IMG/VR virus record: IMGVR_UViG_3300021961_000044
Span: 1-64,000 of that record
Origin: a virus
Direction: 5' to 3' (one strand)
Length of the DNA stretch: 64,000 nucleotides
Made by a program: the position numbers and the translations under genes. The first letter of the stretch is position 1. Each line of letters starts with the position of its first letter. The notes beneath the pieces are model-generated. The model saw only the letters and a program-made list of their open reading frames with translations. It searched no databases and was not told where the DNA came from. Positions 4,586 to 50,399 of the stretch are shown piece by piece.

Positions 4586-7500
4586 ATGACAAGCAGCAGA
4601 ATCAAATTCAATCAAATCGTAGCCGATCAATTCCCTACGTATATCAGAGAAGAATTTCCAGCAGTACAAGAATTCTTTACCAAGTATTACTTGTCACAGG
4701 AATATCCTGGTGGAGCGCTGGATCTGTTAAACAACATTGACAAATATAATAGTATCGAAGAAGTTTCTGATCGATATGTTAATGATGCAGAACTAACTTT
4801 GCCTATAGGACTTTTTGATACTGAGATTAATGTTGCATCTACACAGGGATTTCCTGATAACTATGGTTTAATTAAAGTTGATAATGAATTAATTCTTTAT
4901 ACAGAGAAAAGTAACATTCAATTTAAAGGATGTGTTAGGGGATTCTTAGGGATTACCTCTTACGAAGACCCTTTAAATCCAGAGAATTTTATTTTTTCAA
5001 CATCTAATCAAGAAAAGCATGATCTTCAATATAGTCCAGAAGGTGTTGGACTAAAAAGAGTAACAAATTTAAGTGCTCTTTTCTTAAAAGAATTTTTCAA
5101 AAAAGTAAAATATAGACTTGCTCCTGGGTTTGAGAATAGAGAATTATTTTCTGGAACAGACGAAGAAACTAATAAAGAGATTGCAATAAAACAGTCTCGA
5201 TTTATTAAACAAATAAAAGATTTTTACAAAACAAGAGGAACAGACGAATCCTTTAAAATTTTGTTTAAAGCTCTTTATGGAGAAAAAGCTGAGATAGTCA
5301 GACCAAAAGAGTTTTTATTCAGACCATCTGATTCTCAATTTCAAGTTACTAAAGATTTTATTGTAACTCCAATTAGCGGAAATCCTGCAGAATTGGAGAG
5401 AAATACACTTCAGCAAGATGAGTATAAGGATATAACTAGAGCATATGCTCCTGTTGCTAAAGTAGAAAAAGTTACAACAGGTTTTACAACTTCAAACTAC
5501 TGGAGAGTTAGTATTGATGCGAATTATGATAGAGATATCATAATAAATGGATCCATCTATGGTAATTTTAAAGCACATGCCAAAACAAAAGTAATAGGAA
5601 ATATTTCAGCAGGATCTAGTTATATTGATGTCGATTCAACACTGGGATTTCCTCAAGATGGAGAATTGTATGTTGCTTATTCTGATGGAACTGTTGGTGT
5701 AGTAACATACAAAAATAAATCATTAACTCAATTTTTTGATTGTACTAATATAACAAATACCATTAAAGATACTGAAAATATTTTTATTAATACTTATGCA
5801 TATGGATATTCAAATGTAGATCAATCCCTTATCAAAGTAAGAATCACTCCAGTATTAGAAAATCCATCGGAAAATACAAATAACCATTATTATGAAAATG
5901 GAGAACTGATTGATATTAAGTCATTAGGAGAAGATGCTTCAACGAACGATATTTGGACAATTAATTCCAGTCCAACATATCAGGTAAAAAGTGTTTCTTT
6001 AGTAGATTCTCAACAAAAGTTATATTCTATTTCCACTTTTGATACAATTCTGTTAAAAATAGGAAATACTATCTCGATTGAAGATACCACAGGAACAAAA
6101 ACAGAAGCAGTAGTATTTGATATTACATCTGCCAATGCTTTAAGTGTGAGATCAGATACTCTATTGGATGTAAACAAAAAATATACTTTTACTAAAAAGT
6201 TGTCAAAAGTTAATGCAACTTATTTTACAAATATATCCCACTTAAATTCAAATGTAGAAAATGTTTATATTGATGGAAATAAAACTCTTATAGCGTCTCC
6301 ATCTATACCATCATATAGAAATCAACCACTTGACGTAACTTCCAAAAAAATTATATTTTCTGGAACATTTCCTCCTGTAGGTGTTGGATCTACCAACACC
6401 TACAATATTTCTCCACTTAAAGATCATGGTTTTTATACTGGCGATGCAGTATATTATTCTTTCCCAGTAAAAGAAACCTTAGATACTTTCTCTGGAGTTA
6501 CTCAAACTACATATCCAGAAGGAAATTTGGGAAGTAACTTCGAAGAGGGATTATACTTTATTAAAAGAATAGATGAAAATAATGTTCAATTTGCAAAAGG
6601 AAGATCTGATCTTTTCTATGGAAATTTTGTAAGTACACCATCTCCAGTAACTATCACTGGACAAGTACTTGAAGTTTATAATTTGAAAGGAAAAACTTTA
6701 GGAACGCAAAAACTCCTTAGAGAAATTTCCAAACCAGAAAAAGATGGCAAAAAATATGAGACCACTCCAGGAACTAAGACAGGCATATTTGTTAATGGAG
6801 TAGAACTTCAAAACTACAAATCAACTGATACTGTATATTATGGGTCTATCCAAAAAATTGACGTATCTGCTCCTGGAGAGGATTATGATATTATTAATCC
6901 GCCAATTTTGCACATTAGTGATTCTGTAGGGACAGGGGCTACTGGTTATGTTTCTGTTTCGGGTTCTTTAAAAGAACTTAGAATAATTTCACCAGGATTT
7001 AATTATATTGAAACTCCAGTCATCAAAGTAACTGGTGGAAATGGAACAGGAGCAAAAGCGGCTGTTAAATTAAATCAAGTTACTCATTATATAAATTTCA
7101 ATTCAACTGTTCTTGGACAAAAAGTAGGCATAGGAACAACTGTATCTACAATTGGTTTTACTACATATCATAAGTTTACAAATGCAGAAAAAGTTCTATA
7201 CAAAAATAATGGAGGGCAGGTAATTTCTGGTCTTTCTACCAATTCTGTCTATTATGTAAACGTTGTCGATCCTTATACCGTAAAACTACACCAAACAGAA
7301 AATCAAGCAGTACTTGGAGTCGGAACTGTTGTTTTACTTGACTATGGAACAGGAAATCATACACTCGAATCAGTATCCAAGAAAAATGTAATTTCAAAAA
7401 TAAACATAATTTCTGAAGGTCAAGGATATACTAATAGAAAACTAACAACTGGAATTGTAGGAATTAATACCGCGAGTAATACTATTACTATTCCAAATCA

Positions 7501-10500
7501 TAATTTTTCCACGGGAGAAAGAATTGTTTATGATGTGGATGGTACTTCTGTAGTTGGATTGATTCCAAAAACAAGTTATTATATTGATAAGAAAGATAAT
7601 GATTCTTTCAGATTATATCAATCTGGAATTGGATCTGATGGACAAGTTTATAATACAAAATTGTATGCAGATTTAAGAAATGTTGGATTAGGAACTCATA
7701 TTTTCAATTATCCGGAAATAGAAGTTACTATTGAAGGAAAGATTGGCATTTCTTCGTTATCAACAGAAGATTTTAAGGCAAGAGTTCAACCAATTTTTAG
7801 AGGTTCCGTCGAATCTGTTCATTTATCGAATGATGGAGTTGGATATGGATCTTCTGAAATTTTAAACTTTAATAGAGAACCTTTAATAAATCTTCAAACT
7901 GGAGAAGAAGCACAATTAACTCCAATTGTCAATAACGGACAAGTTGTAGAAGTTTTAGTAAATTCTAAAGGATCTGGATATAATTCATCTCCAACTCTAC
8001 AAGTTGTTGGTTCTGGTGTTGGAGCAGTAATAACTCCAGTAGTAGTAAACGGACAAATAGAATCAGTAAACGTCATTCATGGTGGAGTATCCTACAATAG
8101 ACAAGATACATCCATTAATGTAATTTCATCAGGAAAAGGTGCTAAGTTTTCTGCCACAATAAAAACTTGGACTGTTAATAATGTTATTGCTAACTATGAG
8201 CAGTTTACTGGAGATGATGGATTTATTACAAATGGAACGAATCTACAATATGGTCTTCAGTATACGCATTTATATTCACCAAGATCCCTAAGACAATCCT
8301 TATTTGGCATAGACTCAAAAGGAAATAAAGTATATGGATCTGTAGATCTAAAAATCAATAATGGTTTTGAAATTGATTCATTGTATCACTCTCCAATTAT
8401 AGGGTATGCATACGACGGAAATCCAATTTACGGACCATATGCATATTCTACTCTGACAGGGGGAGTAATAAAACAAGTTAAGAGTGGTTATAGATTGAGT
8501 CTTGCAAATGATCGCCCTCCATTCCCAGAAGGATTTTTTGTGGAGGATTACACCTTCTATCCAAGTTCAGATCCACTTGTATTAGATGAAAATAATGGAA
8601 GATTTTGTGTCACTCCAGAATATCCAAATGGCACATATGCATATTTTTCATCTATAAGTGAAAAACCAGATTCTACTGGAATTTATAAAGGATATAAGTC
8701 ACCAGTATTTCCTTATGTTGTAGGAAATTGCTATAATAATATTCCAAACAATTATAACTTTAAATCATTATCTAATCAAAATGATGTTGATTTAAATCAA
8801 ACTAATTACATCAGAGTTACAAATACTCATAAGATAAAAGGAAAGCAAAGTTCATACAATTACATAGATATTCCAAATAGTTTAAATCAAAAGACAGAGA
8901 TTAAATCTACATCTAAAGGTTCGATTGATGGAGTAGGAATTGTTACAGGTGGACAGAATTATAAAGTAGGTGATAGACCAATTATCAACTTCGAAGGAAG
9001 TGGAGGTTATGGAACTTTACTTGAAGTTGACAAAATTTCAGGAAAAGAAATTACATCTATTAGTGTTGCCACTAGTTCAATCTCTAATGTTGAATTTTTG
9101 CCAATATCAAATGGGGGATCTTTCTTGGCGATTGCTCCAAATCCTCATTATTGGGCAAATACCAATAAGGTAGTCGTATCTGGTCTAAGCACTACAAACA
9201 CCCTCCTTGCAGGGGCATATAGAGCAGGTATATCAACAGATAGATATGTCCTCACTGTTGGAGTTGGTACTGCTGGTGTTACTGGAATAGTAACGTACTT
9301 AAATATTTTTGGTGATTTATCTTATCCATCTTTAAAGGAAAATGATATCCTTTCGATTGGAACTGAAGATGTAAAAGTTTTATCTGTAGATCACGAAACA
9401 TCAAGAATAAGAGTTCTTAGAGGTCAAAATGGCACTGTTTCTACAGCGCATACAAATACAACAACAATAAGACAAAATCACAGAAAATTTAAGATTAATG
9501 TAGGATATAAAACGACATTCAATTATACAATAAACAAAGAGTTTTACTTCAATCCGATTGATTCTCTTGCCCTAACCGTTGGAATTGGAACAACCATAGT
9601 TTTTTCAAATCCAGGAGCAGGAAAGACAAATATATTTGTCCCACAAAAATCAATTTATCTTCCAGATCACGGTCTCAAAACTGGAGATCAAATTCTATAC
9701 AGAACTTATGGAGGAGATCCAATCGAAGTTTCTGTCGGTGGCATTAGTGCTGATTATTCAGTATCAGATCAGGAAATTTTTTACGTTGCAAAAATTTCTA
9801 ATGATTTGATCGGCATTGCAACAGTTAAAGTTGGTCTCGGATCCACAGGTTCCTTTGTGGGTGCTGGAGATAGTATTAGAGAATCATCTACATTATATTT
9901 TACTGGTATTGGAACTGGTGTATATCATAGCTTTAAAACACAATATCCAAATGTTGTTACTGGATCAGCAGAAAAGAATGAGGTAACAGTATCTCTTGCG
10001 AATACTCACGGACTTTTTAATAATGAAACAGTATTTGTCGATGTAAACGTTGGAGGATCTAAAACTGTTACTGTAAAATATAATGACAAAGCAAGAAGAA
10101 TCTTGATTGATCCAAAATCATTCACTTCTGTTGGCGTAAACACCTCAAAATCAGAGATTACAATTACCAATCATGGATTCAGATCTGGCGATAAGGTCGT
10201 TCATACTACTACCTCGAATGGTTATGGTCCTATTGATGGCGAATTATATTATGTTATTGTTGTCGATAATAATACCATCAAACTATCACAGAAAAAATCT
10301 GATGCATTAAGTTCCATTCCTTCTTATATTGGAATTACTAGCGCGTATTCTGGAGAAATTGGATTAGTAAATCCACCTATTCAAGTTTATGAAGATTCCA
10401 CTCTTGTTTTTGATGTTTCAGATTCTTCCTTGAGATTCTTGCAGCAATCCACAGAATATTCTGCATTTGAAATGCTATTCCATTCTGATTTATCATTCAA

Positions 10501-13500
10501 TAGTGTTTTTGAATCTTCCAGAACTTCAAATCAATTTGAGGTTTCTAGAATTGGCGAAATAGGAATATCTTCAAACGCAAAAGTGCAGTTGAAGATAAAC
10601 AAAAATATTCCAAAAGTTTTGTATTATAATTTTTCTCCAATAAACACAAACATTATTCCAGAAGAAAAATCGACAATTATTAGAGATGATGGAGTAACTG
10701 GATATAATGAAATTGTTAGAAATAAGAGTTTATATTCCGGAAAGCATAATGTAACTGTTTCATCCGGAACAACTTTCAAATATACACTCGACAAGCAACC
10801 AGAGTCTACTTCATATGAAAGATCTTCTTCCATATTGCATTATTCGACAAATTCTAAGAACGCATATGGACCTATAGAATCAATTTCTATTAAAAATGGA
10901 GGAAATAACTTTAGAAGACTTCCAGGTTTGTCTACATCCTTTATTTCTGATTTAGGTAGCAATGCAATATTATCACTGTCGGGATCTAATATAGGAAAAA
11001 TTGTATCTAAAAAGATAATTGATATTGGATATGACTTGCCATCCGATAAAACTTTAAAACCAAAAGCAAAATTACCACAAGTTTGCACTATCGAATCTCT
11101 TTCTTCAATAGAAAGTATTTCTATAACTTCTTTTGGAAGAGGATACACTGTTGCTCCGCAATTAGTCCTTATAGATGGAAGAAGAAAAGAAGTACTTCCA
11201 GAAGTCGATTTGAAATTCAAACTGGGAGACGTGAAGGTTGAGATTCTCAAAAATACATATGCACTGTCCAGAACCACTCCTATTATAATACCAATCTATA
11301 ATTCCAATGGTGTTGGAATTTCTAGCTTATCATTCAATTCTTCAGATCAAACAGTTACAGCAACTTTATCAGTTGGATTTAGTACAGCAGAGTCCTTCCC
11401 GTTCAATGTTGGAGATGAAATTTTTGTAGAAAATGCAAGTGTAACTGGAGCAACTGGAAACATTAAGGGATTTAATTCTAACGAATATAATTACAATTTC
11501 TTCGAAGTCACACAGGTATCGAAAAATATTGGTGGAATTGGAATTGTTACTTATAGTATGTCTAACGTTTTGGATGATAATGGCGATGTAGCTAATTTTG
11601 ATGCTACTAATTCTGCAGTAAGGATTATTCCTCGCAAATACATGCCTACATTTGATGTCAAAGTCAGCTCAAATTCATTTGCTATTGGAGAAACTGCTAA
11701 ATTTGGAAATAATAATGAATGCATTATTGAAGGATATAATTCAAATGCAAATATCTTAAAGGTAAGAGCACAAGAACAAATATCTGTTGGCGATATTATT
11801 GAAGGAAAATCTACACAAACAAAAGCAACTGTTAATGAAGTTGAAAGTTATGATGGATTCTATTCCATTGAAAGTTCTTCCTTAAGAAAAGGAGGATGGG
11901 AAAATAATGCTGGATTCTTGGGAGATAATTCTACTAGACTCCAAGATAATGATTATTATCAAAACTTCTCATACTCGATCAAATCAAGAGTTCCATTAGA
12001 AACTTGGGACGATGCTGTTAGTTCATTAAATCACACCACCGGATTTAAGAAGTTCTCTGACTTGCAAATTGAATCTAAACTCGATTATGTTTCCAATCGT
12101 GATCTTGTTGTCGATCTTCCTGCGCCAAACGACATTCCTGGAATTCAAGTTATTGTCGATTTAATTGGAATGGGAGATCTTAATTGTGTTTATGATTTCG
12201 ACTTAGTAAAAGAAAATTCATTCACAGTTGATGGAAAAATAGTATCCGATGAAATAATTTTCCAAAATGCAATTCTTACTGATTACTCAGAATCTATTGG
12301 AAATAGAGTATTGATTATTGATGATATTTCGTATCTGTTTAATAGCAACCCAAGACCAACAAGATTTAGTCCAGTTGCTAGATTTGACCTTGCAGATAGT
12401 AGAGTTAGAAAATTTATCACATATGCAAAAGACATTAGATACACTGGAGAAAGACAAGTACTCTTAGTAACTCTTCTTTATGATAATGATAATCTTTCAT
12501 ACATGAATCAATTTGGAAGAGTTGAATCTGTTTCCGATCTCGGATCTTTTGACTTCGCTATCTCTGGAACTGAGGGTGTTCTTAATTTCTATCCAGTAAA
12601 ATATTCCTTAAATGATTATGCAGTTTCAGCTTTAACCATTGGAATTAATGATTCCTACGTTTCTGGTCTTGGAACAACTACCATTGGAGATAGTGTAAGA
12701 ATCGTAGGAGCTTCAAAATCGGATGTAGTTTCTTCTATTGTTGAAATTCCAAGCTATTATAGTTCGGTTAAAGGAATTGTAGAGATAACAGGACATAATG
12801 GAGAATATGAGTACAACGAATTCAATTTGGTCCATAACGGAACTGAAATTGAATTTATTGATTATGGTCAGTTATCAAATCACAGTTATGATATATTCTC
12901 TGGATCTGGACTGGGAACTTTCTGGCCTTACATTAGTGGATCTACATTAAAAGTAGATTTTACCACTAACTTGGGACTATCTACAACTGGTTTTGGTGCT
13001 ACCGTTAACGCTTGGTTTGTTGCTCTTGCTGACACAAATTATAGTGGAATTGGATCGACAGCACTTAGATATGGAGAACTTAAATCCTCCTATGTAGCTA
13101 TATCATCATCATCAACTCCGACAACTCATATAGTATCGGATTATGTTGATCTTTATGATGGAGGTTATTTCTTAGTACAGGCATCAGACCCAGATAGCGG
13201 AGATCATCAATTCTCCGAAGTTGTCGCTGTTGATGACGATAGCGATGGTTTCATTACCGAATTTGCTATTCTTGAGACAAATCAAAATCTTGGAGTTGTA
13301 GGAATTTCTAAGACTGATGATATAACCAAGATAACATTTGAACCAGTAGCAGATAGAAATATCCAGGTCAAAGTTTTCTCCCATCTAATCCGTCCTACAA
13401 ATGATACAGGAACAAATATAACATTAGATTTCAATAATTCTATCGTTGACAGTTATCAAGGTTTATATGAAGGCACCTTATCAAACATCAAGAGAGCTTT

Positions 13501-16500
13501 CCCACTTAACCATGACAATAATCCAATTTTTAGAAGAGAAGTAGACTGCTCATCTTCTACAAATGTCAATGTTTCAAACAATACTATTCAAATTCCAAAC
13601 CATTATTTCGTAAGTGGAGAGGAAGTTCAGTATAGAGTTGCAGGAACAGGTTCATCTAATGCTATTGGAATTGCATCTACAAGTTTTGTTGGTGTAGGAA
13701 TAACAACAAAACTTCCAGGATCAGTTTATATAATCAAACTTAATGAGTCAGAAGTTCAATTAGCAAGAACAGCTGCGGAAGCACTTGCTTATGTTCCTGT
13801 ACCAATTAACATAACATCAGTAGGAATTGGAACATCACATAGTTTCACTTCTAAAAAGCAAAATTCAAAGGTCGTTGTTGCCATCGACAATGTTATTCAA
13901 TCTCCAATTGTTTCTACAGCAATTACAGCAAGTTTAGCAAAAGCAACAACTACTACTGAAAATGTACTTGAATTTTCTGGAATTACGTCGTTCTTTGGAA
14001 CAGATTTGATTCAAATTGATGATGAAATTATGAGAATTCAATCTATTGGTGTAGGAGCAACGAATAGTGTAAGGGTCAGAAGAGCATGGATGGGAACTGG
14101 TCTGGCTGGACACGGAACAGACGCTAAGATTACAAAAATTAATGGAAACTATAATATTATTGACAGTACAATTAACTTTGTAGATCCTCCATATGGACAA
14201 ACTCCACTTTCCACATCCACAAACAAACCATCGGAAAGAGATTGGATCGGTATAACAACTGGATCTAAATTCCAAGGAAGATCTTTCATGAGATCTGGTA
14301 CTCAAGGTTCAGATGAAGAAACATACACAAGAAATTACATCTTTGATGATATTTCTGAAAACTTTGACGGACAAACTAAGGTATTCACTCTCACTTCATC
14401 GGGATCAAGTGTAACTCAAATAGCAGACAAAAATGCTATTATCACAATTAACGATATTTTCCAAGGTCCAGGTCTTACAAGAGATTATACTTTAATTTCT
14501 GATGAAACTGTCGGAATAACATCAATCCAGTTTACTGGAACAGCAAGTTCCGTGGGTTATGATGTTAATAATGCATCTATTCCTGTTGGTGGTGTTATCG
14601 TTTCTGTTGGTTCTACATTTGGATTTGGATTGCAAGATTTAGTTTCTGCTGGTGGAACCGCTGTTGTTTCTGCAGCTGGAACAATCGCATCAATTAGCAT
14701 TGGAAATAGCGGATCTGGATATAGATCAGGAATTCAAACTGTTGTCAATGTTGGAGTTTATACATCTTCAACCTCAACTTACAGTATAACCAACATCGGA
14801 ACAGCAGCAATTAGTAATGGACACATTGTTAGTGTTGCTATTACAAACCCAGGTGCAGGATATACTAACACTAGTGCTCCTTACGTAGTATTTGATGCTC
14901 CACTTTCTTATTCCAATATACCTCTTGTCTATAGTTCACAATCAACACCAGGTTTCGGGACAGAAGCAAAAATTAATATTGTTGTTGGATCTGCTTCCAG
15001 TGTCGTTGATTTTGAAATTATTAATCTTGGATATGGTTATGGAAACGGAGAAATCCTTACAGTTGAAACTGGAGGACCCACAGGAATTCCAACTGATCCA
15101 ACTAAACCATATAGCGAATTCCAAATATCAATTCAACAAATTTTCAATGATAGATTTGCTGGATGGTCAATTGGACAACTTCAGATAATTGATGACGTAT
15201 CATCGCAATTTAATGGCACTGATTCAATTTTCCCAATTAGAGTTGCGGGTGATTTGATTTCTATTAGATCTTCTAGAGGATCAAACATCGACGTTCAAGC
15301 AACATTATTGGTATTTGTTAATGATGTTCTTCAAGTTCCAGGAGAAGGTTATTTGTTCCCAGGTGGAAGTTTGATTGAATTTACAGAACCTCCAAAATCT
15401 GGAGACACTTGCAAGATCCTTTTCTATAAGGGAAGTGGTGATATTGATGTTGTCGATAGAGATATTGTTGAGACTGTAAAGGTTGGAGATGAACTGACTA
15501 TTAATTATAATCCAGATTTAGGACAAACAACAATTTTCCAAGAAGAAGCAAGAACAGTAACAGAAATCAAGTCAATTGATTTTGTTGGCACTAATCCTTA
15601 CTTTGGACCAGGAAATAGTGATAATGAACAAATGATTAGACCAGTTACTTGGTGCAAGCAAACTGAAGACAAGATTATTGATGAAAAAGAAGTTGGAAAG
15701 GACAGAGATCATTACGAAGCGAATATATTCCCAACTGCTTATGTCACACAAACAGTAGGAACTGGTGTAACGATTATCTATGTCGATACATTAAGAACCT
15801 TGTTTAATGCTGCAAATGAAAACAATGCATCTTTACTCTTCCAGAATAAGATTAACATCTTATCACAGGATTCATTCACTTCCGCTGCTGCTACAGCAAC
15901 AGTTTCTTCTGCGGGAACTATAACTTCATTTACAATCAGCGATGGTGGATCTGGATTTGCATCCATTCCTTCTGTAACTCTTTCCAATCCAATTGGAATT
16001 GGATCAACGGCGTCTGCTACAGCAAGTATTCTCAATGGGTCTGTTGTTGCTATTGCAGTTTCCAATCCTGGATCTGGATATGCATCGACAAATCCTCCAA
16101 AAGTCCTTATTCAAGATGAACCATCTGTATTAGAAACTGATAATGTTCAGAGTTATAGTGGAGATTATGGAACAATTGTAGGATTTGGTGTTACTACTAG
16201 TGGTTTGACCACAAAAGTAATATTTGATCTTTTCATTCCTACAGATTCAGATCTAAGAGGAACCCACTATGTTTCTTCCGCAAGCACTATTAGCGGAATT
16301 AGCACTGGTGACTATTTTGTAGTCAGAGATTCCAATATTGGTTTTGCAGTAACTAATTTTGAAACTAGAAGAACCAACAGCACCACAATCGGTATTTGCA
16401 AATCTCATTTTGATGGCGTATATCAAGTAAATGACTTCCACGTAACATTTAGACCTGTTACTGGAATTGGCACCGTATCTGTAGTAAGAGTATTTGCTAA

Positions 16501-35073: not shown

Positions 35074-35092
35074 TAGATAAAATATAATTTCT

Positions 35093-35124
35093 AAATAGGG
35101 GAAGTAATCTTCCCCTATTTTTTT
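35093..35124 (+). terminator. Terminator-like hairpin overlapping a late promoter
   Basis: AAATAGGGGAAG-taat-CTTCCCCTATTT followed by TTTT; TCTAAATA at 35090-35097. Confidence 0.7.
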
Positions 35125-35355
35125 ATGTCTGAAGAAGAATATAAGTCTGTTATTGCAACATATCAGCAAAAAGCATTTGAACTTTTTAATTCAAATATAG
35201 TTTTAGAATCACAAATACAAGCACAAAGATCCACTATTGAATCCTTAAGAACAGAAATAGAGCAAATGTCTTTTGAACTACAAACTCTTAGAGATCTTAG
35301 AGAAAAAGGAGAACAACAATCAAAAATAACTAAAAAAACTAGTATATCTCAATAA
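35125..35355 (+). CDS. Small coiled-coil protein, 76 aa (possible fibre assembly chaperone)
   Basis: Heptad-rich sequence located between fibre genes. Confidence 0.65.
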   Translation: MSEEEYKSVIATYQQKAFELFNSNIVLESQIQAQRSTIESLRTEIEQMSFELQTLRDLREKGEQQSKITKKTSISQ

Positions 35356-35415
35356 CATAAATAAATTATACCGATAAATATCGGTTTTTTTACGGTAAAT
35401 ACCACACCAAATTGA

Positions 35416-36084
35416 ATGGCCGATCCGAATATTAGGATAAAACGGTCTGCCATACCTGGCAAACAGCCTACGGCAGATCAGCTCCCGTTGGGAGAACTAG
35501 CTTTAAATACTAATGATGGAAAACTCTTTGCCTCTAAAAATGCAGGCATAGGCACAACAGTTTTCGCTGTAAACCCGTGGTCGGTTGGAACAGGAACCGA
35601 TTCTTATAATGCATATTTTACTGCTGGAAATGTTGGTGTTGGTAGCACAATCCCCACATCTAAATTAGATGTAGAGGGTGACATCAATGTTTCTGGTGTA
35701 ATAACTGCTAGTCAATTTATTGGTGGTGGTGTTGGTGTTGGAATTCAATCTGGGGGCACTGTCCTTGGATATGGAATTACAACACTGAATTTTATTGGTA
35801 CTGGAAATACTTTCTCTGTTAGCGGAACTACTGTCGATATCAGCATAGCTGCTGGTAGTGGAGGTGGTGGAACTGGAATCAGTTCCGTGATCATACAGAA
35901 AGATGGAACAAATATAGGTACTGGTTCCAGTACTATAAATTTCACTGGAACAGGTATTCAAACTGTTACATCATCTCCTAGCGGGATTACGACTGTTAGG
36001 GTTGAACTACAAGGCAATCTTGATGGTGGATTGCCAGATTCAAATTACGGCGGCATCGAAGCTATTGAAGGGGGAGGAATCTAA
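35416..36084 (+). CDS. Short fibre/connector protein, 222 aa
   Basis: Starts NIRIKRSAIPGKQPTADQLPLGELALNTNDGKLF; two TTLNFIG/STINFTG repeats; ends LDGG...IEGGGI. Confidence 0.75.
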   Translation: MADPNIRIKRSAIPGKQPTADQLPLGELALNTNDGKLFASKNAGIGTTVFAVNPWSVGTGTDSYNAYFTAGNVGVGSTIPTSKLDVEGDINVSGVITASQFIGGGVGVGIQSGGTVLGYGITTLNFIGTGNTFSVSGTTVDISIAAGSGGGGTGISSVIIQKDGTNIGTGSSTINFTGTGIQTVTSSPSGITTVRVELQGNLDGGLPDSNYGGIEAIEGGGI

Positions 36085-39000
36085 ATGGCAACAAGAATTC
36101 AAATAAGAAGAGGCACTGCCGCTGCATGGACCTCAGCTAACCCTATTCTTGCCGAGGGTGAACTTGGCGTAGAGTTAGATACACAGAAATTTAAAATTGG
36201 TATTGGAACAACCAGTTGGAGTGGTCTAAGTTATGCAACTGGTATTCAAGGAACCACTGGTGCCCAGGGAATCCAAGGAACAACAGGTATCCAAGGGGAT
36301 ACTGGTATTCAAGGCATTACTGGTAGAGGTCTGAATATTGTAGGAAACGTTGCTACAGTTGGAGATCTCCCAGATCCCTATAGTGGATCTATTGGAGATG
36401 CTTATGTTGTAACAGGAACAGGCGATCTTCACGTTTATAATGGAACGAGTTTCGATAACGTTGGACAAATTGTTGGTCCTCAAGGAACCACTGGCGCTCA
36501 AGGAACCCAGGGTATCCAAGGCGAATCAATTCAAGGTACAACTGGATATAATGGTACCCAAGGAACTCAGGGTATTCAGGGTGATGATGGTGCTCAAGGA
36601 ATTGCTGGTGCCTTCGCTGCACAAGGTATTCAAGGAACCCAAGGTATTCAAGGTAGAGAACCTGATGTAGCACAAACAGAAAAAAATACAATTACCTTTT
36701 CTGCTACTGAAGGTCAAGTATCTTTTGGAGCAACATACGTTCCAAATGCGATTGATGTTTATCTGAATGGTGTCAGATTATCAGAATCGGAATATGTAGG
36801 AACAAGTGGAACTCACATTCTTCTTAATGATGGTGCTAATATAGGGGATGTTTTAGATCTCGTTAAATTTGACTTTGGTAATGCTTTTAGAGGTCTTCAA
36901 GGCGTACAAGGTCTTCAAGGATTACAAGGAGTTCAGGGTCTTCAAGGACCACAGGGAACAACTGGTATTCAAGGTGATGTTGGTATTCAAGGAAGTACTG
37001 GTGCTCAGGGAACTCAGGGAGTCCAAGGAACAACTGGTATCCAAGGTGATGTTGGTACCCAAGGAACTCAAGGGGTTCAAGGTGTTCAAGGCGAAATTGG
37101 ATCTCAGGGTCTTGATGGTGCATATGCAGCACAAGGTATCCAAGGCATCCAAGGTATTCAAGGTTTAACACCTGACGTTGCTCAAACAAGCAAGACAACA
37201 ATTAGTTTTTCTGCCAATGAAGGTCAAACTTCTTTTGCAGGAACATATGTAGCAGGAGCAATAGACGTATTCTTAAATGGCGTAAGATTATCAGAATCGG
37301 AATACGTAGGAACAAGTGCAACTAATATCGTCTTAAACGACCCTGCTAACGCTGGAGACGTACTTGATCTTGTTAAGTTTGATTTTGGTAATGCTCTGAG
37401 AGGTTTGCAAGGTGTTCAAGGAACACAAGGTATTCAGGGCGATCTTGGTATTCAGGGTATTCAAGGTCTTGACGGTGCTTATGCCGCTCAAGGTATCCAA
37501 GGTCCACAAGGTACTGATGGTGTTCAAGGAACAAGTGGTCGTGGTGTTACCATTCTTGGTAGTGTTTCTACATCTACAAATCTTCCAGGATATCCAACTT
37601 CTTATGGTGGATCTGTTGGTGATGGATATATCACTTTAGACACAGGTCACTTATGGACTTGGAACGGTAGTTCTTGGGACGATGTTGGTAACATCACAGG
37701 TCCACAAGGAACTACTGGAACACAGGGAACTCGTGGTATTCAGGGAACTACTGGTTCTCAGGGTCAAACAGGTATTCAGGGCGACTTAGGTATCCAAGGT
37801 ATTCAAGGAGAGGCATTACAGGGCGTTCAGGGGACGACTGGTATTCAAGGTGATCTTGGCATTCAGGGCGCTACTGGTGCTGGTATACAAGGTGCTACTG
37901 GCACTCAAGGTGAAACAGGTACTCAAGGTACAACAGGTACTCAAGGTCTTGATGGTGCCTTTGCTGCACAAGGTATCCAAGGTATTCAAGGTATCCAGGG
38001 TTTAACACCTGACGTTGCTCAAACAAGTAAGTCAACCATCACATTCTCCGCTAATGAAGGACAAACTTCTTTTGCTGGAACATATGTAGCGGGAGCTATT
38101 GATGTTTATTTGAATGGTGTTAGATTATCCGATTCTGAATATGTTGGAACAAGTGCAACCAATATTGTTCTCAACGATCCCGCCAACGCTGGAGACGTAC
38201 TTGATCTTGTCAAGTTTGATTTTGGTAATGCATTAAGAGGTCTTCAGGGAATTCAAGGAACAACTGGTATTCAAGGTTTTACTGGTATCCAGGGAAGTGA
38301 TGGTGCCCAGGGTCTTGCTGGTGAATATGCAGCACAAGGTATTCAAGGTACTGATGGTTCACAAGGTACCGATGGTACTCAAGGAACTACAGGACCTCAA
38401 GGAACCACTGGAACTCAAGGAACCACTGGAACTCAGGGAACACAAGGTATTCAAGGTGACAGTGGTCGTGGTGTTACTATTCTCGGTAGTGTTTCGACAT
38501 ATACAAGTCTTCCAGGATATCCAACTTCTTATAGTGGAAATATTGGAGATGGATACATTACTACCAATACTGGTCACTTATGGACTTGGAACGGTAGTTC
38601 TTGGGACGATGTTGGTAACATCACAGGTCCACAAGGAACTACGGGAACGCAAGGAACTCAGGGTGTACAGGGACCTTCAATTCAAGGTGCTCAAGGAACA
38701 ACTGGAATTCAGGGAACAACTGGAACTCAGGGAACTACAGGTCCACAAGGAACTACAGGTTTACAGGGAACTACAGGTCTCCAAGGTTTAACTGGTATTC
38801 AAGGAGACACAGGTCTTCAAGGTTTAACTGGTGTTCAGGGAACGGACGGTCTTGGAGCACTTACAGGAGTTACATCTGTAACTAGTGGAACATTCTTCCC
38901 ACTTTTCGTTTCTGGAACTGGAGATGTTTCTCCAAATATCAGAACAGAAGCAACCGCATTTGGTTATGACGCAGGAACCAACACTGTTACTGCCACAAAC

Positions 39001-39282
39001 TTCAATACAACATCGGACATTACACTGAAGAAAAATGTCAATATTATTGAAAATGCTATTGATTCGGTAAAACTTATCAACGGTGTCAAATTTGACTGGA
39101 AAGATAACGGAAGACCTTCTATTGGTGTTATCGCTCAAGATGTTGAGCAAGTTTATCCAGAATTGGTTTATGAAGTAGACGGACAGAAGACATTAAACTA
39201 TAGCGGTTTAATAGGTGTTCTTGTTGAAGCAGTTAAAGACCTTCAGCAACAAATTAACAATCTAAATAGTACTACAGGTTAA
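36085..39282 (+). CDS. Collagen-like fibre with Mtd N-terminal domain and C-terminal peptidase S74 intramolecular chaperone, 1065 aa
   Basis: RIQIRRGTAAAWTSANPILAEGELGVELDT (Mtd_N-like); long G-X-Y tracts; TSDITLKKN...GVIAQDVE...LNYSGLIGVLVEAVKDL (S74-type). Confidence 0.88.
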   Translation: MATRIQIRRGTAAAWTSANPILAEGELGVELDTQKFKIGIGTTSWSGLSYATGIQGTTGAQGIQGTTGIQGDTGIQGITGRGLNIVGNVATVGDLPDPYSGSIGDAYVVTGTGDLHVYNGTSFDNVGQIVGPQGTTGAQGTQGIQGESIQGTTGYNGTQGTQGIQGDDGAQGIAGAFAAQGIQGTQGIQGREPDVAQTEKNTITFSATEGQVSFGATYVPNAIDVYLNGVRLSESEYVGTSGTHILLNDGANIGDVLDLVKFDFGNAFRGLQGVQGLQGLQGVQGLQGPQGTTGIQGDVGIQGSTGAQGTQGVQGTTGIQGDVGTQGTQGVQGVQGEIGSQGLDGAYAAQGIQGIQGIQGLTPDVAQTSKTTISFSANEGQTSFAGTYVAGAIDVFLNGVRLSESEYVGTSATNIVLNDPANAGDVLDLVKFDFGNALRGLQGVQGTQGIQGDLGIQGIQGLDGAYAAQGIQGPQGTDGVQGTSGRGVTILGSVSTSTNLPGYPTSYGGSVGDGYITLDTGHLWTWNGSSWDDVGNITGPQGTTGTQGTRGIQGTTGSQGQTGIQGDLGIQGIQGEALQGVQGTTGIQGDLGIQGATGAGIQGATGTQGETGTQGTTGTQGLDGAFAAQGIQGIQGIQGLTPDVAQTSKSTITFSANEGQTSFAGTYVAGAIDVYLNGVRLSDSEYVGTSATNIVLNDPANAGDVLDLVKFDFGNALRGLQGIQGTTGIQGFTGIQGSDGAQGLAGEYAAQGIQGTDGSQGTDGTQGTTGPQGTTGTQGTTGTQGTQGIQGDSGRGVTILGSVSTYTSLPGYPTSYSGNIGDGYITTNTGHLWTWNGSSWDDVGNITGPQGTTGTQGTQGVQGPSIQGAQGTTGIQGTTGTQGTTGPQGTTGLQGTTGLQGLTGIQGDTGLQGLTGVQGTDGLGALTGVTSVTSGTFFPLFVSGTGDVSPNIRTEATAFGYDAGTNTVTATNFNTTSDITLKKNVNIIENAIDSVKLINGVKFDWKDNGRPSIGVIAQDVEQVYPELVYEVDGQKTLNYSGLIGVLVEAVKDLQQQINNLNSTTG
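36660..38240 (+). repeat. Three copies of a ~75-aa beta-sandwich module (about 36660-36893, 37170-37403, 38010-38240) in the collagen fibre
   Basis: PDVAQT.K.TI.FSA.EGQ.SF..TYV..AIDV.LNGVRLS.SEYVGTS.T.I.LND.AN.GDVLDLVKFDFGNA.RG repeated three times. Confidence 0.9.
37645..38642 (+). repeat. 71-bp exact direct repeat (37645-37715 and 38572-38642)
   Basis: ggtcacttatggacttggaacggtagttcttgggacgatgttggtaacatcacaggtccacaaggaactac occurs twice, 927 bp apart. Confidence 0.9.
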
Positions 39283-39291: not shown

Positions 39292-39744
39292 ATGAACAAA
39301 ACTAGAGAAGTTGCAAACTTAGTTACTGAGAATAATATCTTTGTTAGCACCTCTAATAATAGAGTTGGCGTCGGATCCACTGTACCAGTAAGTAAACTCG
39401 ATGTTACTGGAGATGTGACTGCTGACAACTTCAATTCGGCTTCTGATGAGTCGATGAAGAAAAATATTGTCAGTATCGCAGATGCTATCGCAAAACTCGA
39501 TAGAATCAATGGCGTTTCTTTCGTATGGAAAGAAACAAATACCAAATCATATGGAGTTACTGCTCAAAATGTTCAGAGCGTATTTCCAGAACTGGTAAAT
39601 GATAATGGATCACACTTAACAGTCAATTATAATGGGTTAATTGGCGTTTTGATTGCTGCCGTAAAAGAACAACAAAAACTAATTGGTACTTTGTCGGACA
39701 GATTAGATGCTTTAGAAGGAAATAACCAAAGTGAAAACGTTTAA
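39292..39744 (+). CDS. Mini-fibre with peptidase S74 chaperone domain, 150 aa
   Basis: ASDESMKKNI...INGVSFVWKE...GVTAQNVQSVFPELV...VNYNGLIGVLIAAVKE. Confidence 0.8.
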   Translation: MNKTREVANLVTENNIFVSTSNNRVGVGSTVPVSKLDVTGDVTADNFNSASDESMKKNIVSIADAIAKLDRINGVSFVWKETNTKSYGVTAQNVQSVFPELVNDNGSHLTVNYNGLIGVLIAAVKEQQKLIGTLSDRLDALEGNNQSENV

Positions 39745-41657: not shown

Positions 41658-43022
41658 ATGGCTCAGTGGAATAAAGAAACTCAAGATTATTTAAATCAAG
41701 AAAGAACTCTTCATGAAGTTTTCATGTGTGCCGACAGGTATGGCAACATTGGAAATTGTGGCGTTTCCACTGGTGCTGGTGGCGGTAGTTATGATGCTTT
41801 TGGTCGTTCCAGAGTATCAGAACCATTCACGCTTGCTGATTATTCTCATCAATATGGACTCAATGAAGAGATTTTATCAAAGACAGTTGGCACTGCTTCT
41901 ACAGTAGTACATGAACGGAATAAAGCATCAGCATCTCTAGTTGTTGGAACTGGTGCTACAGATAAAACCATTCACCAGACTCGTATGTATCACCATTACA
42001 TGCCTGGTAAGTCTCAGTTTGCTCTGTCCAGTTTCAATTTTCAAGATGTCAGAGAGAACACCGTAAAGAGAACTGGATACTTTGACGACTACAATGGTGT
42101 TTTTGTTCAACAAGAAGGTGATGGAACAGTTTCTATCGTAAGAAGAGATTATGTTTCTGGCATTACATCTGACACGGTTATCAATCAGTCCAGTTGGAAT
42201 CTTGATAAACTAGATGGAACAACTGTATCCGGTATTGAACTAGATTTTACTAAAACTCAATTATTCGCAACAGACTTTCAGTGGTTAGGTGTTGGTAGAC
42301 TTCGTTGTGGATTTGTCATTGGTGGACAACTTATCTACTGCCATGAGTTCAATCATTCCAATATAGAAGAGAATGTCTATTGGTCTCAACCATCACTACC
42401 TATTCGTTGCGAGGTAGCAAATACGGGTGCTGCTGTTGGCATTACATCTATGCAGCAGATTTGTTCTACCGTCATGAGTGAAGGTGGATATGAGGAAAGT
42501 GGATTTGAATTCTCTACTGGCGATACAACTGCAATTTCTCTTCCTGGTTCTAATAATGCTCCTAATCATATCAAGTGTGTAATAGCAATTCGTCTTAAGA
42601 ATACTATTAATGGGTATCAAAATAGAACGACTGTAAGGATTACAAACCTGGAACTTCTGTCTACTGCGGCACCTTGTAAGTTTGACCTTTACAGAATGCC
42701 TAGTAATTCTAATATTACTGGAGGAACATGGGTAGATTTTGATGGTGATTATTCTGGTGTCCAGTATAATGTTGGTGTTGGAACAAACTTTAATCTCACT
42801 GGAGCATATTCCAAACTCACTGGATTCTTAGCAGCAAACAATCCTTCGGGCAACCAAAATTCTGGCGATGCTCGTCTCAGTCCATCTGCAGCAAAAAAAT
42901 CTTATCTATCACAGAACATAGATAGTAATGATAGTAATATTTTTGCTGTAGTAGTTCAAAATATGACAACAAATACGGCAAATGAAATTTATGCTGCAGT
43001 TCAATGGAGAGAAACTAGATAG
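41658..43022 (+). CDS. Virion structural protein (beta-rich), 454 aa
   Basis: MAQWNK...DAFGRSRVSEPFTL...YMPGKSQ...DFQWLGVGRLRCGF; sits directly upstream of gp17. Confidence 0.7.
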   Translation: MAQWNKETQDYLNQERTLHEVFMCADRYGNIGNCGVSTGAGGGSYDAFGRSRVSEPFTLADYSHQYGLNEEILSKTVGTASTVVHERNKASASLVVGTGATDKTIHQTRMYHHYMPGKSQFALSSFNFQDVRENTVKRTGYFDDYNGVFVQQEGDGTVSIVRRDYVSGITSDTVINQSSWNLDKLDGTTVSGIELDFTKTQLFATDFQWLGVGRLRCGFVIGGQLIYCHEFNHSNIEENVYWSQPSLPIRCEVANTGAAVGITSMQQICSTVMSEGGYEESGFEFSTGDTTAISLPGSNNAPNHIKCVIAIRLKNTINGYQNRTTVRITNLELLSTAAPCKFDLYRMPSNSNITGGTWVDFDGDYSGVQYNVGVGTNFNLTGAYSKLTGFLAANNPSGNQNSGDARLSPSAAKKSYLSQNIDSNDSNIFAVVVQNMTTNTANEIYAAVQWRETR

Positions 43023-44990: not shown

Positions 44991-47204
44991 ATGGCAACTC
45001 CACAATTATCTCCTGGTGTATTAACTAGAGAGGTTGACTTAACAGTAGGAAGAGCTGATAATGTCCTCGATAATATTGGGGCTATTGCCGGACCTTTTCC
45101 CATTGGACCAGTTAATCAACCTATTTTGATCACCAATGAGACAGAACTCATCGATACCTTTGGAAAACCATTAAGTACAGATGGTCAGTACGAGTATTGG
45201 ATGAGCGCAGCTTCATATCTTTCTTATGGTGGAATCATTAAGGTCGTTAGAGCAGGATCCACCGATTCTACTCTTTTAACTAATGCTAACGCTGGAGTAG
45301 GTGCTGCTTACACAACTACCCTCAAGATTGACAATTATGACGACTACACTGCTAATCACCAGGATGTTGATACTGACTACGCTTATGCTGCAAAAACTCC
45401 AGGCTCTAGACTTAACAATCTGAAAGTCTGTGTCATCGACGATCTTGCAGATCAAAGAATCGGCATCAACACAACCAACCTTGCTAATGCAGGTGCTTTG
45501 ATTGGATATGGTGTTACCACAGTTATCAACGCACAAACTCTTCCAGGTGCAGGAACAACACAATCCTTCAGTGGTTATCTGAAAGGTATTATTACAGGTG
45601 TTAGTACAGACAGCACAAACGGAAATAGCACAATCGACGTTAAGATTGTTTCTAGAGTATCTGCTGCTGGTACAGAAACAAATATTACTTATGCTGAGAG
45701 AAACAGAACAGCTTCATTCAGCACTTCAGATGCACTTTACTTTGTAAATAACTCTGGTATTAATACCGGTCTTTCTGGCACTGTTAGCGCATATACACCT
45801 ACAACTGCGGTTGATTGGTATAATGAGCAAACACTTGGTCTTACAAATGCAACAATCTATTGGAAGTCGATTGCTCCAAGACCAACAACTTCCAATTATG
45901 CATCTCAGAGAAACTGCAAAAACGACGCACTTAACGTTGCTGTTGTAGATGATTTGGGAACAATTACGGGAGTACAAGGAACTATCCTTGAAAAGCATGT
46001 TGGACTTTCCAAGGCAGCAGACGCTATTTCTGCAGTAAATTCTCCACAAAAGATTTACTACAGTCAGTATCTTGCAGACTTCTCACCAAATATCTACGCT
46101 GGATATAATCCATCTCAATCAGAAGATACTTATAATGGAACTGCTCCTAGAGCAACTGGTTACTCGGCAGCCTTCACAGCAGTAACAACTGCAAGTGGTC
46201 TTTGGGGACAAAATGCACAAGACGTAACCTTCAGTGCAATTGGTAACGTAACATATACCCTTGGTGGTGGTGTTGATTATTCTGCTACTGGCGGAATGAA
46301 GGCAACACTCGCAGATCAAATTACTGCATATGGTTACTTTGCTAATGAAGATGATGAAGCAGTTGACTTCTTGATCATGGGTCCTGGTTGCGATTCGATT
46401 GGCGAATCTCAAGCAAAAGCAAACTATCTGATTTCACTTGCAAATCAAAGAAAAGACTGTGTTGCTTGTGTTGGACCACATAGAGGAGGAATCGTTGGAC
46501 AAACCAATGCAACCACTCAAACAAATAACCTGATTGAGTACTTCAGCCCACTTCAATCTTCTTCTTATGCTGTATTTGATAGTGGATATAAGTACACTTA
46601 CGATAGATTTAATAACAGATTCCGCTATGTTCCAACTAACGCTGACGTAGCAGGTTTGATGTGCAGAACAGGAATCTTGGCATTCCCATGGTTCTCCCCT
46701 GCAGGTCAACAAAGAGGAATCATCAACAATGCAATTAAACTTGCATACAATCCAAACAAAGCTCAAAGAGATCAACTTTATCCTTTGAGAATCAACCCTG
46801 TTGTTAACAAGCCTGGTGTTGGTGTTCTCTTGTTTGGTGATAAAACCGCTCTTGGTTATGAAAGTGCTTTCGATAGAATTAATGTTCGTCGTCTGTTCCT
46901 TACAATCGAACAAGCACTTCAAACTAGTGCAGAAGCACAATTGTTTGAATTGAATGACGAATTAACAAGAGCTAATTTTGTTAACATTGTCGAACCATAT
47001 CTCCGCGATATTCAAGCGAAGAGAGGAATGTATGATTTCAGAGTCATTTGCGATGGAACAAACAACACTCCTGATGTTATTGATAATAATGAATTCAGAG
47101 CAGACATCTTTATCAAACCAGCGAAATCGATTAACTACGTCACTCTGACCTTCGTTGCAACCAGAACTGGTGTTGCATTTGAAGAAGTCATCGGTCGAGT
47201 TTGA
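44991..47204 (+). CDS. gp18: Tail sheath protein gp18
   Basis: LSPGVLTREVDLT...PWFSPAGQQRG...FGDKT...SAFDRINVRRLF...IFIKPAKSINYVTLTFVATRTG. Confidence 0.98.
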   Translation: MATPQLSPGVLTREVDLTVGRADNVLDNIGAIAGPFPIGPVNQPILITNETELIDTFGKPLSTDGQYEYWMSAASYLSYGGIIKVVRAGSTDSTLLTNANAGVGAAYTTTLKIDNYDDYTANHQDVDTDYAYAAKTPGSRLNNLKVCVIDDLADQRIGINTTNLANAGALIGYGVTTVINAQTLPGAGTTQSFSGYLKGIITGVSTDSTNGNSTIDVKIVSRVSAAGTETNITYAERNRTASFSTSDALYFVNNSGINTGLSGTVSAYTPTTAVDWYNEQTLGLTNATIYWKSIAPRPTTSNYASQRNCKNDALNVAVVDDLGTITGVQGTILEKHVGLSKAADAISAVNSPQKIYYSQYLADFSPNIYAGYNPSQSEDTYNGTAPRATGYSAAFTAVTTASGLWGQNAQDVTFSAIGNVTYTLGGGVDYSATGGMKATLADQITAYGYFANEDDEAVDFLIMGPGCDSIGESQAKANYLISLANQRKDCVACVGPHRGGIVGQTNATTQTNNLIEYFSPLQSSSYAVFDSGYKYTYDRFNNRFRYVPTNADVAGLMCRTGILAFPWFSPAGQQRGIINNAIKLAYNPNKAQRDQLYPLRINPVVNKPGVGVLLFGDKTALGYESAFDRINVRRLFLTIEQALQTSAEAQLFELNDELTRANFVNIVEPYLRDIQAKRGMYDFRVICDGTNNTPDVIDNNEFRADIFIKPAKSINYVTLTFVATRTGVAFEEVIGRV

Positions 47205-49815: not shown

Positions 49816-49850
49816 TAAATAACTATTAAAGTGTATTTAATTTTAGAATA

Positions 49851-50399
49851 ATGGCTCATAGACCTGTAGGATTATCAACATCATTGGCAACTAGTGCCAC
49901 TTCTGGGATGACAAGTTCTTTTGTTGTCTCTTCAAATGTCATTAGGGTTGTTGCCGTAACGGCTGGTGCCCATGTAAAAATTGATAGCGCACCTACCGCC
50001 ACTACTAATGATTATTATATTCCTGCAGGAACTTCCGCTACCCTTGCTTTAACAAAAGCATCTAATAGAGTTGTTGGAATTACTACAGGAGCTTCTACCA
50101 CAATTACTTTCCCAGAAGGAACACAGTGTCCATTTGGAGTTGGAGATTTTATTACAATAACAGGTGGATCAAATTCGGCGCTGAATCTCCTCCATGTTGA
50201 AGTAACTAGTGTAGATACCACTTCAAATTTCAATGGAAATTTCCAAACCACATGTACAGTTGCTTATGACTCTAGTGCTGCTGGAGATTTTGCAGGAGCA
50301 GATGTCACAGCAAGCCTCTCAGTGAGATTGGCAGCTAGAACTGATACTGGCACTGGAACTTTACATGCACAACAAGTTCAAATTTCAGGAGTAGCATAA
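49851..50399 (+). CDS. Hypothetical virion protein, 182 aa
   Basis: Ser/Thr/Ala/Gly-rich beta protein; late promoter AATAAATA at 49814-49821. Confidence 0.7.
   Translation: MAHRPVGLSTSLATSATSGMTSSFVVSSNVIRVVAVTAGAHVKIDSAPTATTNDYYIPAGTSATLALTKASNRVVGITTGASTTITFPEGTQCPFGVGDFITITGGSNSALNLLHVEVTSVDTTSNFNGNFQTTCTVAYDSSAAGDFAGADVTASLSVRLAARTDTGTGTLHAQQVQISGVA

Follow-up and report, generated by a model that had tools for sequence, protein, structure and literature searches.

T4-like cyanophages are among the most abundant viruses of the ocean and control populations of Prochlorococcus and Synechococcus. Enzymes that modify many copies of a short surface motif are known from the bacterial autotransporter heptosyltransferases TibC and AAH, which act on repeated beta-helix motifs of TibA and AIDA-I, and from the atypical sequons of the capsid protein of chlorovirus PBCV-1. 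Sulfolobus turreted icosahedral virus (STIV) has a glycosylated major capsid protein for which the viral protein A197 is the suspected enzyme, in a role that is unproven, and we know of no acceptor motif for A197. From what is reported of work by Freeman et al. in Cell Host Microbe (2023), mycobacteriophage virions are glycosylated by phage-encoded glycosyltransferases, and this modification was shown chemically. Here we analyze a 64,000-nucleotide stretch of viral DNA (IMG/VR record IMGVR_UViG_3300021961_000044, positions 1 to 64,000; hereafter the window), in which a short protein motif, Gly-(Ile/Val)-small-Thr, recurs across the exterior proteins of the virion and an open reading frame (ORF) at 1228-2019 encodes a predicted glycosyltransferase. 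The window holds the structural module of a T4-like cyanomyovirus (Kyanoviridae) within a contig of 92,986 bp, and the closest named relatives of this phage are the Synechococcus phages Bellamy, S-SCSM1 and S-B05. We find that the motif is real and clade-specific, and we tentatively propose that it serves as an acceptor site for the ORF 1228 enzyme.

Motif excess in the outer virion proteins

The motif was scored in its original form, G-[IVL]-[GSTA]-[TS], and its expected frequency was computed protein by protein. It is 3-7 times over-frequent in the outer tail, baseplate and neck proteins, which are listed here with their copy numbers and, where computed, the expected values.

4586-16879, + strand: gp7-like giant baseplate wedge protein of 4097 amino acids (aa), 38 copies (phrog_2885, E 0)
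16910-19009, + strand: gp9/10-like baseplate protein (PF07880), 4 copies vs 1.9 expected, at 16922, 17195, 17936 and 18641
19040-20590, + strand: gp8 baseplate protein (PF09215), 3 copies, at 19097, 19703 and 20414
20597-28060, + strand: VrlC-like/DUF4815 giant structural protein of 2487 aa (PF16075), 9 copies vs 3.0 expected
28496-29350, + strand: gp13 neck protein (phrog_211), a single copy, VGIATT at 28730, in an inserted loop
29355-30776, + strand: gp14 neck protein (PF11649), 3 copies vs 0.84 expected, at 29958, 30096 and 30264
32983-36084, + strand: two fibre proteins with Mtd_N-like heads, 6 and 5 copies
41658-43022, + strand: virion structural protein (phrog_1645), 4 copies vs 0.44 expected, z 5.4
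44991-47204, + strand: gp18 tail sheath, 2 copies, at residues 174 and 203
49851-50399, + strand: DUF7243 protein (PF23891), 2 copies vs 0.5 expected

The gp7-like protein shows the excess most clearly. It has 38 copies, in agreement with the 35-40 that the original prediction had put there by eye, compared to 5.6 ± 2.4 expected from whole-protein shuffles (z 13.6). The first copy is at nucleotide 4949 and the last ends at 16825. Shuffling within segments of 10-100 aa, which keeps local composition, gave 6-8 copies and never more than 18. The real order of the motif's four residue classes also ranked first among all 24 possible orderings, with 38 matches vs 2-23 for the other 23, the runner-up having 23. 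Pooled together, 17 other outer virion proteins contain 44 copies vs 16.2 ± 3.9 expected, and the highest count in 2000 shuffles was 32. The excess thus survives the composition-preserving shuffles that had been proposed as a check. The motif had also been noted as rare or absent in the portal, terminase, scaffold and replication proteins, and the 22 remaining ORFs of the window, these among them, have 3 copies vs 2.1 expected.

Gly, Thr and Ser abound in the enriched proteins, which would favor an explanation of the excess as an artefact of Gly/Thr/Val/Ile richness or of a DNA-level signal such as a nucleotide repeat. However, the observed count lies beyond every global and local shuffle, the expectations were computed for each protein separately, and no other ordering of the residue classes exceeds 23 matches. 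The 38 copies of the gp7-like gene are encoded by 36 different 12-mers, and codon usage within the motif is that of the gene as a whole; therefore, the signal sits in the protein and not in the DNA, as the original prediction had held. We rejected the artefact, whose probability we regard as negligible.

The individual copies that had been named in gp8, the VrlC-like protein, gp13 (AVGIATTT), gp14, gp18, ORF 41658 and ORF 49851 are all present. The fibres had been counted among the motif-bearing proteins as well, which is correct for the two with Mtd_N-like heads but not for the collagen-like fibre at 36085-39282, with 2 copies vs 4.0 expected. This last protein contains 11 Collagen stretches and ends in an S74 chaperone. 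Assignment of the giant baseplate protein to the T4 gp7 type rests on its family homology (phrog_2885) and its place between gp6 and gp8; its match to PF23786 reaches 24 bits, under the family cutoff of 27. The VrlC-like protein has counterparts with 12 copies in Bellamy and 8 in S-B05, at positions that are partly conserved, and the S-B05 ORF that aligns to the gp9/10-like protein, a candidate ortholog annotated as "unclassified head protein", has 10 copies vs 2.4 expected. Both gp18 copies fall between the two blocks alignable with T4 gp18 (window protein residues 6-93 and 423-735), a stretch that we take to be the variable region forming the outer domains of the T4 sheath.

The gp21 protease (50399-51049) was thought to have one match and in fact has two, GVSS at 50762 and GIGS at 50777. 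T4 gp21 likewise has two, and the matches of the window protein are kept in T4 and in phages without the excess. Moreover, gp21 orthologs are enriched in both cyanophage clades described below (17 vs 1.3 and 8 vs 0.7 expected). The gp21 matches are therefore ancestral, belong to the protease itself and stand outside the clade signal.

In gene order, the enzyme gene at 1228-2019 is followed by the gp25, gp6, gp7-like, gp9/10-like, gp8 and VrlC-like/DUF4815 genes; then come gp13, gp14, the fibres, gp17, gp18, gp19, gp20, gp21 and replication genes. The order gp25-gp6-gp7-...-gp8 agrees with Bellamy and S-B05.

The ORF 1228 enzyme and the distribution of the motif

The gene for the putative enzyme lies upstream of gp25-gp6-gp7.

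1228-2019, + strand: candidate "writer" of the motif, a 263-aa glycosyltransferase with predicted GT-A fold (phrog_1574)

ORF 1228 also matches phrog_34859, annotated "glycosyltransferase", at E 2e-6. As a lone query the protein found no Pfam match even at E 10 and no match in the PDB. Its family includes 2217 close metagenome relatives and, at 70-83% identity, 104 phage records. Alignment with 40 relatives of 30-54% identity showed that D110, D112, E232, D233 and H257 are invariant. D110-S111-D112, the DSD form of the DxD motif, sits in the block WIDSDI. The family profile matches STIV A197 (PDB 2c0n) at E 4e-8, which is the sole solved structure found. Ten of the 41 family members match PF00535 weakly (best 3.6e-5), and 2 of the 41 relatives match Pfam TPR repeat families. 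From these conserved features, ORF 1228 is a predicted GT-A glycosyltransferase with an intact DxD motif.

We then compared the window genome with 15 complete cyanophage genomes, calling ORFs identically throughout and computing observed/expected motif counts for each proteome. All ten genomes with an ORF 1228 homolog are enriched: the window genome (3.26), Bellamy (3.05), S-SCSM1 (2.90), S-CAM9 (3.34), S-SSM7 (3.22), S-SKS1 (2.03), P-SSM5 (2.50), S-CAM7 (2.67), ACG-2014f (3.48) and S-TIM61 (1.47). None of the six genomes without a homolog is enriched (P-SSM4, 0.93; S-PM2, 0.86; P-HM2, 0.89; Syn1, 0.98; S-ShM2, 1.00; S-CREM1, 0.84). The proposed co-occurrence of motif and glycosyltransferase is thus borne out, though its T4-like part amounts to the split of one clade. 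The giant tail proteins of non-carriers are unenriched, with 8 copies vs 8.9 expected in a 6213-aa part of P-SSM4 gp7 and 6 vs 2.7 and 4 vs 2.3 in S-PM2 proteins of 3048 and 2747 aa. The tail, baseplate and head proteins of T4 have 4 copies vs 6.3 expected.

To define the motif by an unbiased scan, tetrapeptides were enumerated in proteins of at least 400 aa from nine carrier-clade genomes and six sister-clade genomes. After collagen triplets, the top words of the carrier clade are GITT (113 vs 15.9 expected), GIGT (105 vs 17.9) and GIST (94 vs 13.8), with GIAT, GIVT and GVST next; the same words occur at expectation or lower in the sister clade. In a scan of single positions, Gly alone is enriched at position 1 (3.1-fold), Ile, Val and Leu at position 2 (4.2-, 2.2- and 1.6-fold), Ser, Gly, Thr, Ala and Val at position 3 (2.3- to 3.9-fold), and Thr (4.4-fold) and Ser (1.75-fold) at position 4, compared to about 1-fold everywhere in the sister clade. 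V/S/T/A are preferred at -1, F/T/I at +4 and H/F at +6, and charged residues are depleted from the flanks. The refined motif is [V/S/T/A]-G-[I>V>L]-[S/G/T/A/V]-T, which is found at 2.5-5.8 times expectation in carriers vs 0.55-1.2 times in non-carriers.

ORF 1228 is set apart from the other genes of these phages by its distribution. Of the 225 Bellamy ORFs, the ORF 1228 homolog alone has a counterpart in each of the eight other enriched genomes and lacks one in each of the six remaining genomes, and among the 85 ORFs of the window genome ORF 1228 is likewise the sole one with this all-enriched, no-unenriched distribution. A wider set of nine ORFs is shared by five or more of the eight enriched genomes and is absent from all six others; sugar enzymes make up five of the nine, namely ORF 1228, an NAD-dependent epimerase/dehydratase, GT11, GDP-mannose 4,6-dehydratase and GT25. 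A predicted glycosyltransferase encoded by the phage is conserved together with motif-rich virion proteins.

Orthologs of core virion proteins follow the same division. Carriers have 17 copies vs 5.5 expected in gp8, 12 vs 1.2 in gp13 and 20 vs 8.3 in gp18, compared to 3 vs 4.1, 2 vs 0.6 and 3 vs 4.3 in non-carriers, whereas gp17 and gp20 have no copies in carriers and non-carriers alike. The suspicion that the gp13 motif sits in an inserted loop is borne out by the alignment: the loop is present in all nine carrier orthologs and missing from five of six non-carrier orthologs, P-HM2 having a short remnant without the motif. In S-CAM9 the loop is expanded and has 6 copies. The gp18 copies stand at positions that differ by lineage, all of them within the variable region between the T4-aligned blocks. 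By these counts and alignments, core virion orthologs gain the motif only in ORF 1228 carriers, and in variable or inserted regions.

S-TIM61 belongs to a separate, S-TIM5-like lineage of myoviruses, and most T4-type core genes have no detectable homolog in it. Its ORF 1228 homolog is 53% identical, and its large proteins show a 2.8-fold excess of the refined motif (P 5e-7), which had been defined without this genome. The excess comes from three neighboring giant proteins, which are non-homologous to those of the clade and share only short patches with either clade. The S-TIM5-like lineage lends independent support to the link between motif and enzyme, as do the bacterial loci described below.

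In S-SKS1, which has the smallest motif excess of the T4-like carriers, the ORF 1228 homolog (HQ633071.1, 143926-144680) is read in two frames that cover residues 1-38 and 36-263; the split may represent a frameshift or another start, or an error of sequencing. A glycosyltransferase homolog of 36-40% identity is also present in an unrelated lineage of metagenomic viruses (L257, 9986-10669; L258, 5968-6651), and the 20 kb around it are without homologs of cyanophage genes. Scans of viral contigs with two distant homologs found, for P0141, two loci whose flanks are without large Gly/Thr-rich proteins, so that the comparison has no statistical power, and for P0156 no loci. The sugar dehydrogenase at 60548 had also been placed in the system. 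We rejected ORF 60548-61342 as a member, because it does not travel with the motif: homologs are found in only two of the nine other carrier genomes. Its 264-aa product is UDP-glucose/GDP-mannose dehydrogenase-like and matches only part of the N-terminal and central domains.

Structural setting and possible function of the motif

All 82 gp7 orthologs from viral metagenome contigs are enriched for the motif, by 5.1- to 8.9-fold. Identity between gp7 proteins across the clade is 29-47%, compared to 70-83% for the ORF 1228 enzyme, and motif positions turn over strongly between gp7 orthologs. We aligned 71 orthologs over residues 830-2010 of the gp7-like protein and found 14 columns in which at least half of the sequences have the motif. 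These columns hold 66% of the instances in this region, and 48 more columns have lineage-specific copies. Within the 14 columns, the Gly, the aliphatic residue and the hydroxyl residue at position 4 are near-invariant, and position 3 is variable.

Part of the gp7-like protein is built from a repeated module, which was traced with hidden Markov models (HMMs).

7145-7372, + strand: first copy of the gp7-like module (protein residues 854-929)
7478-7717, 9635-9937, 10151-10357 and 13577-13846: further copies of the module

The five modules are 70-90 aa long, match one another at E 1e-5 to 1e-12, and have 2-3 motif copies apiece. Their rough pattern is NH-x-F-x-x-G-[DE]...Y-Y-V...K-L...V-G-I-G-T-x-H-x-F. 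The internal repeat was rejected as a full explanation of the excess, since the modules account for only about 12 of the 38 copies. A YHYH domain (PF14240) is likewise present in the gp7-like protein, where it spans residues 1157-1356, encoded by 8054-8653. P-SSM4 gp7 (L086, 10269-28909), annotated at 7312 aa and without motif excess, matches the window protein in the YHYH region only.

AlphaFold2 models made with deep alignments for residues 830-2010 (predicted local distance difference test, pLDDT, 74) and 2900-4097 (pLDDT 68) are both all-beta and multi-domain. In these models the residues of the 30 motif copies covered are about 70% coil, compared to 60% for the background; typically a copy stands right after a strand, and the next strand follows 6-7 residues on. 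Exposed turns had been expected. Coil beside strands is where most copies lie, a result that bears on secondary structure alone. A Foldseek search of the PDB with the 1181-residue model of residues 830-2010 returned only unrelated viral capsids and spikes at low template-modeling scores (0.04-0.09) and was uninformative.

These features raise the possibility that V-G-I-x-T is purely structural, a favored turn or cap at strand ends in the beta-rich tail modules of the clade. Such an element would be akin to the VGIGTTxP loops found in trimeric beta-helix fibres and would have spread by duplication and shuffling of modules. The glycosyltransferase would then be a mere clade marker that acts on another substrate, such as the host envelope or DNA. 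The repeated module and the conserved columns are as expected for a structural element. However, the module leaves most copies unexplained, and the motif occurs in proteins that are not homologous to one another as well as in loops newly inserted into core orthologs. Furthermore, neither T4 nor the sister clade (P-SSM4, S-PM2), whose tail proteins are just as giant and beta-rich, shows the excess, and the motif recurs in the unrelated S-TIM5-like lineage, which has just the enzyme in common.

Bacterial genomes bear on both possibilities. Bacterial homologs of ORF 1228, at 29-44% identity, occur in Polyangiaceae, Fibrobacterota, Elusimicrobia, KSB1 and others. Twelve of 34 such loci have an ORF within 2.5 kb that encodes at least two copies of V-G-[IV]-G-T. 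Counted by ORF, 12 of 147 near the enzyme have the motif vs 0 of 208 farther away (Fisher 2e-5), so that the enzyme adjoins VGIGT-repeat proteins far above chance, which a purely structural motif would not lead one to expect. These neighbors form one family, with repeats of the form GNVGIGTTxPxxKLxV. In the phages, the fibre-type P...L tail follows none of the 55 motif copies of the window genome and 27 of 905 copies of the clade, which also argues against a loop of the fibre type there.

A second set of observations weighs against glycosylation. The NVGIGTTxP loop is very common in bacteria and occurs in many phyla. We picked at least 80 bacterial loci solely by a DNA pattern encoding N-V-G-I-G-T-T-x-P, and the enzyme family was found within 8 kb of 0 of the 80 loci listed, compared to 34 of 34 positive controls. 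Six of seven genomes with the loop, including five cultured Bacteroidota, are without a member of the enzyme family, and only a partial match of 41 residues was found in the seventh (control genomes, E 1e-97). Loops of the fibre type are present without the enzyme and therefore constitute a self-sufficient structural element. Conversely, Polyangiaceae have the enzyme without a motif-rich neighbor, and five enzyme-holding genomes, four metagenome-assembled genomes (MAGs) of Polyangiaceae/Polyangiales and one Raymondbacteria MAG, yielded no bacterial repeat protein with the query used. In the phages, the flanks of the motif are hydrophobic and charge-poor, and V(-1), I(+1) and T(+3) are spaced like residues that point to the same side of a strand; together with the near-invariant Gly and aliphatic residue, this pattern fits a packing role. 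A tree built from gp17, gp18, gp20 and gp23 and rooted on T4 places all T4-like ORF 1228 carriers in one clade, sister to the non-carriers (Shimodaira-Hasegawa-like approximate likelihood ratio test, SH-aLRT, 99), and therefore nine of the ten positive genomes amount to a single event in evolution. In addition, cyanophage glycosyltransferases have been published as modifiers of the host cell wall or of DNA (PMC12801897, PMC9602691), and the assignment of these enzymes to cell-wall modification (PMC12801897) counts in favor of the structural explanation.

The motif could also serve to dock a decoration, cement or fibre protein specific to the clade, for example the collagen-like fibres. The motif is limited to the virion exterior, and two fibre-cluster ORFs, 35416-36084 and 39292-39744, are each present in eight of nine carrier genomes and in none of the six non-carriers, which marks them as clade-specific fibre parts. 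Collagen-type words are strongly enriched in the large proteins of the same clade (GATG, 232 vs 20.5 expected; GPTG, 106 vs 12.6; PTGP, 69 vs 5.0; GPQG, 55 vs 4.4) and near expectation in the sister clade. However, at least 38 sites per gp7 chain and a high positional turnover suit a stoichiometric partner poorly. No candidate binder has the full distribution including S-TIM61, which the glycosyltransferase alone has. We therefore consider docking improbable. A further clade-associated ORF lies beyond the window (G000, 86208-86741); its 178-aa product has no Pfam family and has 2 motif copies vs 0.5 expected, and it is found in seven of nine genomes with an ORF 1228 homolog and in none of six without.

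With the excess, the co-occurrence and the GT-A signature on one side and the single clade and the enzyme-free bacterial loops on the other, a candidate O-glycosylation acceptor site for the ORF 1228 enzyme is the most likely function of the motif, and we advance it tentatively. A purely structural role is a serious possibility, nearly as likely as glycosylation. The two are compatible, since the enzyme could recognize a structural loop that is exposed. If glycosylation is correct, the motif would be a short loop element that stands at strand ends, is under selection at the protein level and has spread over the exterior virion proteins of one cyanophage clade, on the baseplate, the neck, the outer domains of the sheath and the fibres. 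The ORF 1228 enzyme would transfer a sugar from a nucleotide-sugar to the hydroxyl of the motif Thr in the host cytoplasm, and the tail and baseplate would become coated with sugars. We infer that the enzyme acts on proteins and that the Thr at position 4 is the acceptor; the glycan may then serve in shielding, stability or host binding. A broader proposal, which we hold with slightly more reserve, is that a small GT-A family, present in two cyanophage lineages and several bacterial phyla, reads the V-G-I-x-T loop as an O-glycosylation sequon, that one large clade of ocean T4-like cyanophages multiplied the loop across its exterior virion proteins so that sugars coat tail and baseplate, and that the sugar-nucleotide and glycosyltransferase genes of these phages, which have been regarded as modifiers of host lipopolysaccharide (LPS), serve the virion. 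Among the papers searched, none relevant to glycosylation of cyanophage virions or to the motif as a string came up.

If glycosylation holds, an entire cyanophage clade would have sugars on its tail, baseplate and neck at a defined four-residue site, and the motif would be the first sequon for protein glycosylation to be defined in a tailed phage that infects Gram-negative hosts. This would alter, for this clade, the interpretation of how hosts are recognized, of particle stability and of grazing or recognition of an antibody-like kind. The "LPS" gene clusters of P-SSM2-like phages would acquire a new reading, and an acceptor motif could be named for an uncharacterized GT-A family that is also found in bacteria. 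The claim is directly testable, because the clade members Bellamy, S-SCSM1, S-SSM7, P-SSM2 and S-CAM9 and the non-members S-PM2, Syn1 and P-SSM4 are cultured. Should the motif have a structural role alone, it would nonetheless mark this lineage sharply by the architecture of its virion proteins.

Comparison with known systems

The motif can be compared with the capping loops of S74/MAT trimeric beta-helices, which have the consensus V-G-G/N-pi-x-x-P-x-x-x-L and occur in Bdellovibrio Bd3182 and Bd2133, the phage T5 L-shaped fibre and K1F endosialidase (PMC10769870). Like the motif described here, these loops are short, start with V-G and stand at the edges of beta-rich fibres, and the GNVGIGTTxPxxKLxV loop of the bacterial glycosyltransferase neighbors is of the same general kind. 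However, position 3 of the consensus, which corresponds to position 2 of the motif, is Gly or Asn, and these residues are unenriched in the phages (0.83- and 0.93-fold). The consensus has zero matches in the window genome, and Pro is unenriched downstream of the motif. Moreover, S74/MAT loops sit in the fibre ahead of S74, whereas the only S74 protein of the window (36085-39282) is unenriched and most window copies are in the gp7-like protein, gp8, gp13, gp14 and the VrlC-like protein.

With TibC/AAH and the PBCV-1 capsid the likeness is an analogy of mechanism only, and enzyme families, sugars and motifs differ. STIV A197 resembles ORF 1228 in that both are small, virus-encoded, predicted or solved GT-A enzymes with a DxD motif, but the two align over only two short stretches of about 90 and 50 residues, and their hosts belong to different domains. 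The mycobacteriophage system is like our proposal in that enzymes encoded by the phage are reported to attach O-linked sugars, in the host cytoplasm, to virion proteins that are exposed. Its enzymes are unrelated to ORF 1228. The acceptors differ as well: in mycobacteriophages they are Ser/Thr-rich C-terminal extensions of capsid and tail-tube proteins, whereas here the candidate acceptor is a four-residue motif in baseplate, neck and fibre proteins.

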